A stretch of DNA of 10,539 nucleotides from Promethearchaeia archaeon (GTDB lineage Archaea; Asgardarchaeota; Lokiarchaeia; Sigyniarchaeales; SOKP01), in contig JAHQWH010000017.1 in the NCBI GenBank assembly GCA_029856105.1, positions 1 to 10,539 on the forward strand. Reading direction: 5' to 3'. Of this stretch, positions 5,268-10,430 are shown piece after piece. The number at the start of each line of letters is the position of its first letter. Positions within the stretch are counted from its first letter, which is position 1. The notes under the pieces were generated by a model. It was given only the letters and a program-made list of their open reading frames with translations, ran no database searches and was not told where the DNA came from. A program made the position numbers and the translations under genes.

Positions 5268-7448
5268 ATGACATTAGATATACAATTGGTTAGTGGAATT
5301 GGAAAAAAAACCGCAGAAAGAATGAAACAGAAAGGGATAGACTCAATAGAAATATTAGCGTCAACGAACATTGAAGATTTATTAAAAATTAACGGCATTG
5401 GGAACGCTACGGCAAGTAGATATATTAATATTGCCCAAAACTATCTTGAAAACATTAAAGGAAAAGAAAGAAGAGCAAATATTATTAAAGAAGAGGTAAG
5501 ACCGTTCTCAACTAGCTCAGAAGAGATTATAGATGTTCCTAAAACCTCTTTTTTAGAAGAGATATTAGTTAATCAAAATTCATCATCATCTAATTCAAAA
5601 GAGATATTAGACATTTCAAGACTCTCTGAGAAGAGTCTTAATATTGTTCAAGAATATCATGATAATAAAAAAGTAGGGGAAAGAGAGAAAAAAACCATTA
5701 AAAAAGAGAAAAATCAAATCCCTCTTAGATTAAAAGTGTTTTTGGCTGATCCAGAGTCGTCTATTTCGGGAGAAATATTAGACAATCCGAAACTAACTAA
5801 TGAGAAAAATATACCTGGAGTACCAATTAACACTACTAGACAATTAAAAAAAGAAAAAATTGCCCCCACAGAAGCAGAAATGGTAAGATCAACAAAAAAG
5901 TCAACAAAAAAGTCAAAAAAAAAGAAAGAGTTTGAAAAAAAGAAGAAGAATTGGCCACCCATGATAAAAATAGGATCTCATCAAATAAAATCTAAAATTG
6001 AACCTCAACCAGCCAAAAAGCAACAATTAACGCACAAAAAACCGGAATTAAGGCAAAAAGATCAAAAATTAACGTATAAAAATAGTACAAAAATTAAAGA
6101 AGAAAAATCAAGAAAGGGCAAAAAACCGTTACTTAGAACATTTTTCTCTCCAGAAATAATGCAAAAGATTCGTTTTTTCCATTTTAAAATTAAATATTTA
6201 GAAGTGGCAATGCGAAAAAATGAAGATTTTTCATTCCACGATCTTGATTCTATTGTAGATTATGTAGAAATCTTAAATATTAATTACAAAACTCAGAGCC
6301 AAATAAAAATCTTTAAAGAATTAGATATTACTCCGTCTTTTTTTGATCCCCTTGAAAAGAAAGAGATAGAAATATGGGATTTAATGTTTGAATGTACACG
6401 GGTATTATGGGTAGCAGCACAAGCATGTTCTTATCTTTCTAAGAAATTCGAATCTGAAGGTGTTCTGAAAAATGCTATAGTAGCGATGGTAGAATGTAGT
6501 AAAATGTATAAGGCTGCAGCATATTTTAGTGCGGCATGTACTCGCCAAGAAAACAAGGGAACCACATTGTCCGCTGGAAATCTTGAACTAAATTCTGAGG
6601 AATCTCGGATTTTCGCTCAAAGTTTAGCTACTATGAGCGAAGAACAGAAACAAAACCTATCAATAGCATCAAATCTATGTGCAGGATTGAGTGCATTAAC
6701 AAAAAGATTATACTTTTTAAAAATATATGATAAAGGAAAGGAAAAACAGTTAAAAGCTCAATATAATTACGATATAGGCAAAGCTTGTCATTTGAAAGCT
6801 AAATTATTATTAAATATATCAGATGATGGTGAAAGTAAGGAAATCATTGAAGGTCTACAGAAAAAAGCTAATTATTATTTATACAAAGCGGAAGAAACAT
6901 GGGAATACATGTTAGAGAATTTAAAAGAACTTTCAAATAATGAAAAGAAAAACATACAAGTTAATTTGTCAATAGTTAATGAATACATCATAGAAAATGA
7001 TGTTGAAATTATAAAAGATAATGAAGCCATGAAAATTCAAGATCCGGAGCCGCTAATCATAGTCCCAGAAAATTTAGCACCATTTTTACCAAAGACTACT
7101 AATTATCTAACTCAATACAAACCAAAAGATCTCAATTTTTACGTTTATAGACGTTATAAAGATTTACTCTCGGAAATTTCGGTTGAATACAACAAAATCG
7201 AGGAATTACAAAATAGGAAAGCAGGAATCGGTCGAACATTGAAACAATTGAGAGTTTTGTATAATAATAATGATATTGATATCAGTGATTTTACTCATCT
7301 TTTTGAAAAATATTCAACCAAACTCGTAACAATTGAGAATGTTATTGAAAAATTAAAAAATCCTGAGAAAAAAAGCCAAATTAATAAACAACAAATAGAA
7401 GAAACTAAATCTAAACATAAATCAAATTATATTAGTATAAAAAATTGA
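5268..7448 (+). CDS. Paralog A: N-terminal (HhH)2 domain, long Lys-rich linker, putative Bro1-like helical domain, C-terminal steadiness-box-like hairpin (726 aa)
   Basis: HhH motifs LVSGIGKKTAERM and LLKINGIGNATA (aa 1-62). Low-complexity K/E/S linker to about aa 289. Conserved core from RTFFSPE (6135) is shared with paralog B. The CDS and HhH call are secure; the Bro1/SB calls are by-eye motif matches. Confidence 0.85.
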   Translation: MTLDIQLVSGIGKKTAERMKQKGIDSIEILASTNIEDLLKINGIGNATASRYINIAQNYLENIKGKERRANIIKEEVRPFSTSSEEIIDVPKTSFLEEILVNQNSSSSNSKEILDISRLSEKSLNIVQEYHDNKKVGEREKKTIKKEKNQIPLRLKVFLADPESSISGEILDNPKLTNEKNIPGVPINTTRQLKKEKIAPTEAEMVRSTKKSTKKSKKKKEFEKKKKNWPPMIKIGSHQIKSKIEPQPAKKQQLTHKKPELRQKDQKLTYKNSTKIKEEKSRKGKKPLLRTFFSPEIMQKIRFFHFKIKYLEVAMRKNEDFSFHDLDSIVDYVEILNINYKTQSQIKIFKELDITPSFFDPLEKKEIEIWDLMFECTRVLWVAAQACSYLSKKFESEGVLKNAIVAMVECSKMYKAAAYFSAACTRQENKGTTLSAGNLELNSEESRIFAQSLATMSEEQKQNLSIASNLCAGLSALTKRLYFLKIYDKGKEKQLKAQYNYDIGKACHLKAKLLLNISDDGESKEIIEGLQKKANYYLYKAEETWEYMLENLKELSNNEKKNIQVNLSIVNEYIIENDVEIIKDNEAMKIQDPEPLIIVPENLAPFLPKTTNYLTQYKPKDLNFYVYRRYKDLLSEISVEYNKIEELQNRKAGIGRTLKQLRVLYNNNDIDISDFTHLFEKYSTKLVTIENVIEKLKNPEKKSQINKQQIEETKSKHKSNYISIKN
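5889..5924 (+). repeat. 3 x 12-bp in-frame tandem repeat encoding STKK-STKK-SKKK
   Basis: tcaacaaaaaag tcaacaaaaaag tcaaaaaaaaag. Confidence 0.85.
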
Positions 7449-7708
7449 AGTTTCTTGTTATCTTTAAGTGAATTTAAAATTTCAGCTTTTTTCTTTGAAA
7501 TTTGAAATCTAATAGTTATAAAGATACCAGTCATATTTTTTGGTTTATAAATACTCAAATTCTGGCTTTTTGCTCCTGAAGGGAATGAAATTATGAATCC
7601 GAAATCAAATTTGGCACTATCTATTCTGTCCTTTAAGATGCCTTCTTCTAATAAATATTCATGTAATAAATTCTCAACAATGTTCTTATCACTTGGCTTC
7701 GTAAACAA
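7427..7708 (-). pseudogene. 3'-truncated DUF2299-like paralog (93 aa versus 175 aa)
   Basis: Aligns with 3053..3580 (EYLLEEGILKDR/EYLIDEGILKER; DFGFIISFP/DFGFIFTFP; SIYKPKN/SVFKPKN; LNSLKDNKKLQFF/LNSGKENKVFQFF), then stops. I see no homologous continuation just past the stop in any minus frame. Start codon is TTG. Confidence 0.7.
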
Positions 7709-9933: not shown

Positions 9934-10430
9934 CTCCTATATTGAAATATATTAAATATCTTAAGACAAGCATAATTTATATCGTGTTAGGAATTATACT
10001 AATTTACTATATTTATAATCAATTAGTAGGAATATTCCTGGCAAGTTTAGTTTTCGTAGTATACTTAGTATCTTTTTTAATTTCACTTTCTTCTAAGAGA
10101 AGTCTTCTAAGAGTAATTCGAGAATATCCAACTATAAGCGATAAAGAAATTTCTAATAAAATGAAGCGTCCTATAGACGATGTTAGGAATATTCTATTCT
10201 CGTTATCTAAAAATCAGAAAAAGAAAAAATGGTTAATAGTGTTTCTGAATAAAGGGTATATATTTCTCAACGAAAGCGCAGTTGAGAATTTTAAACAACT
10301 ATATTCTATGGGTTACAATGAAAAAAAAATTCTAGAACATTTACAGCGGAACACAAGAATTAAATCAAGAGCTGAAGTAAAAGCTATTGAACTCACACTT
10401 ACCAATCAAAAAAGACTTAAAAAGGAGTAG
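9930..10430 (+). CDS. Membrane protein: N-terminal 2-TM hairpin plus basic winged-helix/HTH-like soluble region (166 aa)
   Basis: GTG start overlaps the TGA stop of paralog B (GTGA, 9930-9933). Hydrophobic helices SIIYIVLGIILIYYIY and LVGIFLASLVFVVYLVSFLISL. HTH-like ISDKEISNKMKRPIDDVRNILFSL, followed by the beta-hairpin-like WLIVFLNKGYIFL. Confidence 0.8.
   Translation: MTPILKYIKYLKTSIIYIVLGIILIYYIYNQLVGIFLASLVFVVYLVSFLISLSSKRSLLRVIREYPTISDKEISNKMKRPIDDVRNILFSLSKNQKKKKWLIVFLNKGYIFLNESAVENFKQLYSMGYNEKKILEHLQRNTRIKSRAEVKAIELTLTNQKRLKKE

Follow-up and report, generated by a model that had tools for sequence, protein, structure and literature searches.

Genes A and B of contig JAHQWH010000017.1 (assembly GCA_029856105.1), from a Promethearchaeia archaeon of the order Sigyniarchaeales, encode two paralogous proteins in which a Bro1-fold domain is followed in the same chain by a steadiness box (SB), both domains being of the type found in ESCRT (endosomal sorting complexes that are required for transport). 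The stretch analysed, referred to here as the window, is the entire contig of 10,539 nt (C15), part of a genome of 3.66 Mb that is 92% complete, and the named homologues of its proteins belong to Lokiarchaeota/Promethearchaeota. The archaeal Bro1-SB protein is the solid result of this analysis, whereas the proposal that A and B tether DNA, made in an earlier note on this sequence (the original prediction), is its weak part. The folds, homologies and gene history rest on models and profiles; every interaction proposed below is inferred.

Gene layout

Both proteins start with a helix-hairpin-helix (HhH) head, and gene B is followed by gene C, which encodes a membrane protein. The features of the three genes are as follows.

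5268..7448, + strand: gene A, 726 aa, with HhH head, Lys-rich linker, Bro1 domain and steadiness box
5268..5453, + strand: (HhH)2 head of A, both GIG motifs intact
5454..6131, + strand: linker of A, partly basic and little conserved; ratio of nonsynonymous to synonymous substitution rates (dN/dS) 0.6
6132..7103, + strand: Bro1-fold domain of A, assigned from 65% identity to the modelled core of B
7176..7367, + strand: steadiness-box hairpin of A, E 3e-11 against a profile of Asgard Vps23-type boxes
7936..9933, + strand: gene B, 665 aa from ATG (668 aa from the TTG at 7927), with HhH head, a second half HhH, linker, Bro1 domain and steadiness box
7936..8121, + strand: (HhH)2 head of B
8224..8376, + strand: degenerate HhH half-module of B (aa ~97-147), product of an internal duplication
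8644..9615, + strand: Bro1-fold domain of B, Z 20.7-21.9 against yeast Bro1, HD-PTP, ALIX and BROX
9688..9879, + strand: steadiness-box hairpin of B, matched by 2caz_D and with E 2e-9 by the Asgard Vps23-type profile
9930..10430, + strand: gene C, 166 aa, with transmembrane helices at aa ~7-56, a winged helix at ~53-116 and a wingless helical unit at ~115-160

A and B are 49% identical overall and 65% identical across a core of ~420 aa, while the Lys-rich linker diverges. All of their domains are under purifying selection, with dN/dS values of 0.08-0.31 in the HhH, Bro1 and SB regions and of 0.4-0.6 in the linker. The open reading frames, the Pfam matches of the heads and these identities confirm the original description of two paralogs with an HhH head, a divergent basic linker and a helical core of ~410 aa. 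The coupling of the second paralog to a gene for a protein with two transmembrane helices and a winged helix-turn-helix, also proposed there, is seen in a 4-nt overlap (GTGA) of the reading frames of B and C.

Bro1-fold core

The AlphaFold model of the B core was built with 57 sequences (pLDDT 83.8). In a Foldseek search with this model, ranks 1 to 21 are all Bro1 domains (E 4.5e-6 to 8.9e-4), and the next fold appears at E 1.2e-2. A search independent of Foldseek (VIA) aligned the same core with yeast Bro1, HD-PTP, ALIX and BROX over 281-297 residues, at the Z scores listed above, the next fold reaching 11.5. This gap led to the rejection of a generic tetratricopeptide repeat (TPR) solenoid; Bro1 is clearly preferred over such alpha-solenoids, a match to which had been named beforehand as an argument against the prediction. 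In the ESM Atlas, eukaryotic BRO1/ALIX clusters show TM-scores of 0.52-0.60 to the B core, and a 69-member Promethearchaeota cluster carries the automatic name "putative BRO1 domain-containing protein".

At the sequence level, the connection to Bro1 goes through more distant relatives. Pfam BRO1 (PF03097) matches neither A nor B nor 57 close members of the family, and neither Bro1 nor Vps23_core came up when A, B or close alignments were run against Pfam and PDB sequences. The family profile (A1) retrieves the orthologue P0148 with E 3.8e-45, the gene order of which is that of the head-less parent gene described below, and P0148 matches Pfam BRO1 with E 3.2e-8 (33.3 bits, below the curated cut-off of 35.1). 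Four more distant homologues match the same Pfam family with E 5e-4 to 0.03, and a pan-Asgard profile reaches HD-PTP with E 0.013. The Foldseek ranks, the Z scores and the sequence bridge through P0148 bear out the Bro1-like core of the original prediction and, as far as the model goes, the core of A and B is a true Bro1-fold domain.

The likeness to eukaryotic Bro1 proteins (yeast Bro1, 1zb1; ALIX, 2oew and 3c3o; HD-PTP/PTPN23, 3rau and 5mk2; BROX, 3um3) extends to the fold of the whole domain, including the N-terminal beta-hairpin, the TPR-like core and the proline-rich closing segment. In contrast to full-length ALIX, Bro1 and HD-PTP, the archaeal family has neither a V domain nor a proline-rich tail; instead, the Bro1 domain is followed by ~25 low-confidence residues and the 60-aa hairpin, so that the family differs from the eukaryotic proteins in its fused steadiness box and, in A and B, in its HhH head.

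The groove that binds CHMP4 in HD-PTP makes contact through L189, L202 and I206, plus K192 (PMC5501724). In a hidden Markov model alignment, L189 falls on Ala167 and K192 on position 170 of the core, while the equivalence of positions 179 and 183 to L202 and I206 comes from an extension of that alignment. In this register, the latter two residues correspond to F179 and L183 in 25 of 25 parent proteins, to L/M/I and L/M in the fused copies, and to M179 and L183 (core numbering) in B. Hydrophobic residues would therefore occupy two of the three main CHMP4-site positions, and HD-PTP differs from the family at the third, where the latter has Ala. Position 170 holds Lys or Arg in 18 of the 25 parents. 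According to these alignments, the family keeps part of the ligand groove, which has changed in the fused clade. A complex predicted for the Bro1 domain of B and the CHMP4-7-type Snf7 protein, represented by its 45-residue tail, scored 0.06 against a mark of 0.32 with no controls folded, and it counts as evidence in neither direction.

Steadiness-box hairpin

Residues 349-412 of the B model superpose on the yeast Vps23 core (2caz_D) with 1.3 Å over 60 residues (Z 8.4). The same hairpin also matches CdvA (9s9g, Z 8.0) and OST1 (Z ~8), for which reason structure alone is not decisive for a steadiness box. Across many Asgard genomes, however, the family profile finds, through the hairpin segment only, proteins of ~250 aa with the arrangement UEV-coiled-coil-Vps23_core, several of them encoded within ESCRT operons. 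In the reverse direction, a profile of Asgard Vps23-type boxes retrieves from this genome a Znr-PH-CC-SB protein (4e-13), A (3e-11), B (2e-9) and the parent (9e-6), the best value in the reversed proteome, used as a control, being E 0.016. The seeds of that profile first came from the family profile and were then identified independently by Pfam and by operon, which makes the result reciprocal, not blind.

Pfam Vps23_core (PF09454) has no match anywhere in the genome and reaches the tail of P0148 with E 0.086; bona fide Asgard Vps23 proteins likewise fall under its cut-off. Weak SHOCT matches were also obtained, and the strongest SB matches across Asgard archaea are Vps23 and Znr-PH-CC-SB. Judging from the reciprocal profile matches and the fold match to 2caz_D, the SB-like segment of the original prediction holds up, and the C-terminal hairpin shares its ancestry with the steadiness box of Asgard Vps23. 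Eukaryotic ALIX and TSG101 are two distinct proteins. The family shares with Vps23/TSG101 (PF09454; 2caz, 2f66, 6vme) a C-terminal helical hairpin of ~60 aa, and with the Asgard UEV-Vps23 and Znr_PH_CC_SB proteins (cog.011556, PMC10936438) the reciprocal profile matches, but it lacks the UEV domain and the long coiled-coil stalk of Vps23/TSG101 and has the Bro1 domain upstream instead.

SB-like hairpins occur elsewhere as well. A 474-aa uncharacterised protein (C229:1886-3310) ends in such a hairpin (E 4e-4), and in other Asgard genomes it is fused to an ABC-type ATPase (L091:4880-5782) or to a CDC48-N domain with a zinc ribbon (L093:5453-6304).

ESCRT complement and relation to Vps23

ESCRT-III, the absence of which from the genome would have spoken against the original prediction, is encoded outside the window. 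Two Snf7 proteins, Vps4 and ESCRT-II are present, one contig (C8) carrying Snf7-Vps4-Vps25-Vps22, another (C225) the second Snf7 beside Znr-PH-CC-SB, and a third (C16) Vps28. Of 16 other Asgard genomes searched with a UEV-Vps23 profile, 15 contain a full-length match (E 1e-51 to 1e-99). In this order, 56 genomes yielded partial matches only (best 3e-12) and no full-length UEV-Vps23. Conversely, the Bro1 homologues from Vps23-bearing lineages have no SB hairpin; their additional part is a JAB domain, a zinc ribbon or a different tail. This complementary pattern fits Bro1-SB as an alternative ESCRT-I subunit, and the protein may substitute for Vps23 in that role. A limit on this idea is set by a UEV protein and a freestanding SB protein of Loki, the latter possibly binding Vps28 (Hatano et al., PMC9192718).

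Three arrangements of the Bro1-type domain in other lineages were recorded. In one, a JAB/MPN deubiquitinase domain is fused to it (L086:5580-7337), which places AMSH-like and Bro1-like modules in one chain. In another, it is followed by a C-terminal zinc ribbon without a steadiness box (L087:5043-6164, L088, L089 and L036; family f29, 11/11 genomes). The last has a tail of ~150 aa, also without a steadiness box, and is encoded beside ferredoxin oxidoreductase genes (L033-L035; family f18).

Distribution and origin of the fused copies

A third copy in this genome, on contig C94, is a head-less protein of 412 aa. A member of the protein family is present in 67 of 68 genomes of the archaeal family, the head-less form lying at a fixed locus beside an ATP-grasp gene; this parent gene is single-copy and near-universal. 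The 30 extended (fused) copies form one clade, nested inside the parents and with longer branches, with a support of 100 in the Shimodaira-Hasegawa approximate likelihood ratio test (SH-aLRT) of a quick tree. Their distribution is patchy (~33 of the 68 genomes). Extra copies of Bro1-SB and of C are both found in 32 genomes and both missing in 35, with one discordant genome; these counts were compiled by hand with fragments merged, and related genomes are not independent. The extended copy is followed by C, at -4 to 116 nt, in 20 of 20 island loci (the island being the fused gene together with C and its conserved neighbours), so the co-conservation of the membrane protein, on which the original prediction had also been made to depend, is observed. 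The ancestral paralog of C is single-copy in 66 of the 68 genomes and unlinked to the parent Bro1-SB gene. The tree and these distributions indicate that the fusion is a derived accessory paralog of the head-less Bro1-SB, and that a single duplication gave the gene its HhH head and brought it together with a duplicate of C.

HhH head

Pfam HHH_5 (PF14520) matches the N-terminus of A (E 1.3e-11) and B (E 1.8e-9) above its cut-off. A and B have both GIG motifs intact. Among 25 fused copies, however, only 9 retain both GhG motifs, and in at least one island copy no head can be recognised. The nearest relative of the head within the genome is the N-terminal head of aIF2-gamma: the head of A is 50% identical to Lokiarchaeial aIF2-gamma heads and 30% to the N-terminus of RadA, and for the fused heads the mean identity is 43% to aIF2-gamma, 36% to an FKBP head, 27% to RadA and 25% to a Rag/Arf-like GTPase. 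A phmmer match of B to RadA 2bke (E 0.005) lies outside the head and was discarded as a chance helical match. Across the family, the gene for aIF2-gamma and the ancestral C are two genes apart, which suggests that the head and C originated at the same locus. The HhH head may bind DNA, but it is an add-on of a type that this lineage places on proteins without a DNA role.

The (HhH)2 head is found on aIF2-gamma family-wide (C65:16796-18367; L042:10797-12365:+), and in 4 of 16 loci it is a separate open reading frame of 121-133 aa. Related heads occur on an FKBP-type peptidyl-prolyl isomerase (C2), a Rag/Arf-like GTPase (C35) and two proteins without a known family.

Gene C membrane protein

The fold of gene C was taken from a predicted model (pLDDT 87.9), in which a two-helix membrane hairpin leads into a winged helix, after which comes a three-helix unit without a wing. 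The protein is basic. Its best fold matches are a SelB pair of RNA-binding winged helices (Z 9.7, 3.2 Å over 104 residues), UFL1/DDRGK1 (Z 6.5-7.3) and PCI domains, and neither ESCRT-II nor LEM2 chains are among the top 50 listed, a ranking that does not argue against a kinship with them. Pfam DDRGK (PF09756) matches none of 30 members of the gene C family. C resembles DDRGK1/UFL1 and the SelB pair in having a helix that runs into a winged helix with a further helical unit, but differs from them in that two transmembrane helices directly precede the winged helix, with an identity of 4-13% and no family-level sequence match. DDRGK1 is itself membrane-anchored. The model gives middling fold scores, which assign no function to C. 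Divergent relatives of C are also found outside the close family (L108:7902-8519, L109:8160-8693 and L110:7644-8246), including genomes in which no Bro1-SB was detected.

Island neighbourhood

The remaining features of the window are listed below.

1..2704, - strand: large surface protein cut by the contig end, with NosD-type beta-helix and immunoglobulin (Ig)-like repeats
3053..3580, + strand: intact DUF2299 gene, variable island member (6/20 loci), inverted here together with gene E
3846..4700, + strand: gene E, 284 aa, with N-terminal transmembrane helix and Cys-containing outer domain; island member outside the region covered by the original prediction
4805..4931, - strand: decayed remnant of the DUF2299 5' region upstream of A, marking the duplication/inversion
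7427..7708, - strand: truncated DUF2299 gene (93 of ~175 aa) within the duplicated unit, overlapping the final 22 nt of A
10437..10539, - strand: 3' end of dnaJ, convergent with C; island flank

The duplicated unit includes the DUF2299 5' fragment and the upstream region, as 7632-7804 matches 4813-4983 and 7868-8069 matches 5199-5401; B therefore has its own upstream region. This and the DUF2299 fragment on the minus strand between the two genes rule out that A and B form one operon. A scan for sigma-70 promoters, a model that does not fit archaea, gave hits at chance level only. Segment 4805-4931 is an inverted copy of 3002-3128 (70% identity); the pair bounds the DUF2299 gene and gene E, whose orientation is here the reverse of that in related loci.

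In 19 of 20 loci, gene E is a neighbour of the fused Bro1 gene; the searches gave it no family and no usable fold. The cluster of the large surface protein at 1-2704 is represented in 18 of 20 loci, mostly divergent from the Bro1 gene, and a flank with dnaJ (dnaJ/dnaK/grpE) is present in 10 of 20. The secreted proteins that flank the island have 1500-2700 aa. No chromosome or division gene is found among the conserved neighbours of the 20 island loci.

In the surface protein of the window, the GC content climbs from 27% to 45% toward the Ig-like repeats, and the protein is 59-62% identical to island proteins elsewhere. The giant surface proteins (1900-2700 aa) share a C-terminal anchor in which two transmembrane helices enclose a short, basic loop that contains a Tyr-Tyr motif, a possible sorting signal (L053:3-6818, L054:3-5705, L061:2-8119, L062:2651-8722 and L063:11149-18336). 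In three genomes, the island is adjoined by a gene for a SIR2-like domain with a long TPR array (L069:1877-5764, L068:11486-15439 and L072:1815-5093), a possible defence gene, with a subtilase on the opposite side.

Proposed mechanism and alternatives

It is proposed, at roughly even odds (a probability of about 0.5), that A and B derive as accessory paralogs from a Lokiarchaeial ESCRT-I-type adaptor, with a Bro1 domain that binds an ESCRT-III tail or something similar and with C as an anchor, serving surface proteins. In this mechanism, the steadiness box would assemble the protein with the other SB proteins of the cell (Vps28, Znr-PH-CC-SB and Vps22), while the concave Bro1 groove would bind an amphipathic helix, most likely the tail of ESCRT-III, so that a single chain would offer a shortcut from ESCRT-I to ESCRT-III in the manner of ALIX. 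C would keep the complex at the membrane via its winged-helix units, and the island copy would be specialised for handling the neighbouring surface proteins at the membrane (their display, vesicle shedding or turnover). The HhH head would be an accessory tag for binding nucleic acids or proteins, probably acquired from the aIF2-gamma locus, and not the core of the mechanism.

Several observations weigh against this proposal. Identity to eukaryotic Bro1 is only 11-15%, the equivalent of L189 is Ala across the whole family, position 170 is Ser in A and B, and the CHMP4-7-type tail of the genome, a conserved amphipathic helix, lacks the eukaryotic terminal Trp. ESCRT genes are found near neither the parent nor the island, and the link to surface proteins is based on gene neighbourhood among related genomes only. 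In the 7 genomes of a sister family, neither Bro1-SB nor a full-length Vps23 was detected, which indicates that substitution is not obligatory. In addition, the position of the ancestral C two genes from HhH-aIF2-gamma means that proximity may explain the joint capture of head and C. A more far-reaching version is doubtful: in it, Bro1-SB would replace UEV-Vps23 in this lineage as the ESCRT-I subunit and recruit ESCRT-III directly, making the ALIX-type route pre-eukaryotic, and the HhH-capped, anchored duplicate would form an ESCRT branch of its own, coupling DNA or the ribosome to the budding or turnover of giant surface proteins.

The original prediction was that one polypeptide could link DNA, ESCRT-I-type assembly and ESCRT-III, with C as a membrane anchor, in analogy to LEM2/Heh1-CHMP7 or CdvA. 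In the tether model that follows it, the HhH head and the basic linker would bind chromosomal DNA and the Bro1 and SB domains would recruit ESCRT, coupling DNA to membrane scission. Such a tether would be consistent with the intact GIG motifs of A and B, with a head that is under purifying selection (dN/dS 0.12-0.24) and was duplicated inside B, with the basic linker and with a basic C that contains a winged helix. In Loki, moreover, CHMP4-7 binds DNA, which alters its polymers (PMC11791191). Nevertheless, the universal parent carries no nucleic-acid-binding head, and roughly one family genome in two contains the fusion, which is not the distribution of a division gene. The heads are closer to aIF2-gamma than to RadA and have relatives on an FKBP protein and a small GTPase, the GhG motifs are often lost, and at least one island copy lacks a recognisable head. 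The closest folds of C are RNA-binding or scaffold winged helices, and the conserved neighbours encode surface proteins. The likeness to LEM2/Heh1-CHMP7 lies in the idea of a membrane-anchored winged-helix adaptor that recruits ESCRT-III, and that to CdvA in the SB-type hairpin, but no LEM or PRC-barrel domain is seen. With this patchy, accessory distribution, neither analogy is well supported, and DNA tethering is considered unlikely.

The same head and the folds of C have also been considered in terms of quality control at membrane-bound ribosomes, in which the head would bind rRNA or mRNA, C would be a DDRGK1-like anchor (one and a half winged helices), and Bro1-SB would pass stalled or misinserted giant surface proteins to ESCRT. 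The kinship of the head with that of aIF2-gamma, its presence on an FKBP foldase, the SelB and UFL1/DDRGK1 matches of C, the dnaJ/dnaK/grpE flank and the size of the secreted neighbours all point in this direction. However, such Z values are typical of common winged-helix arrangements at 4-13% identity, Pfam DDRGK is not matched, and the dnaK flank varies among loci and may be a mere insertion site, which leaves this explanation quite improbable. A scaffold outside ESCRT, with a Bro1 domain that is a true homologue but does not serve ESCRT (or does not yet), a groove that binds, for example, C, and a hairpin that homo-oligomerises, would account for the distance from ESCRT genes, the changed groove residues and the faster evolution of the fused clade. 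It would also fit the SB-like hairpins on unrelated Asgard proteins such as the ABC ATPase and the CDC48-N protein, the OST1 match and the weak SHOCT matches. Against it stand the two independent ESCRT-type domains in one chain, the strongest SB matches across Asgard archaea, which are Vps23 and Znr-PH-CC-SB, and the JAB-Bro1 fusion of a related lineage, which links the domain to ubiquitin/ESCRT biology; this scaffold is thus regarded as a long shot.

Relation to published work and significance

To date, Bro1/Alix orthologs have been stated not to be identifiable in Asgard archaea (Makarova et al. 2024, PMC10936438). In Eme et al. 2023 (PMC10307638), the entries seen for an Asgard "Bro1" refer to PF18097 in Heimdall-, Njord- and Thorarchaeia, and three rows of the supplement give short proteins of 75-155 aa; as far as these entries show, they have the name alone in common with the ~410-aa proteins described here, which belong to a different Pfam family. 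Two structure-based surveys (one of them PMC12962969) do not mention Bro1/ALIX in their main text; a supplementary table may have an entry. The same applies to the protein family itself, no description of which was found in the searchable literature. The original prediction left the novelty of the fusion and the operon to a check of the literature, and the main texts searched contain no description of them. Loki ESCRT-III proteins have already been purified and polymerised in vitro (PMC11791191).

At least four Asgard lineages have a Bro1 domain, with a steadiness box, a JAB deubiquitinase domain, a zinc ribbon or an HhH head as its fusion partner, which would mean that the origin of this adaptor predates eukaryotes. 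The Bro1-SB fusion unites in one chain two modules that in eukaryotes are found on separate, interacting proteins, and the accessory island provides a first handle on a possible specialisation of ESCRT for cargo in an archaeon.

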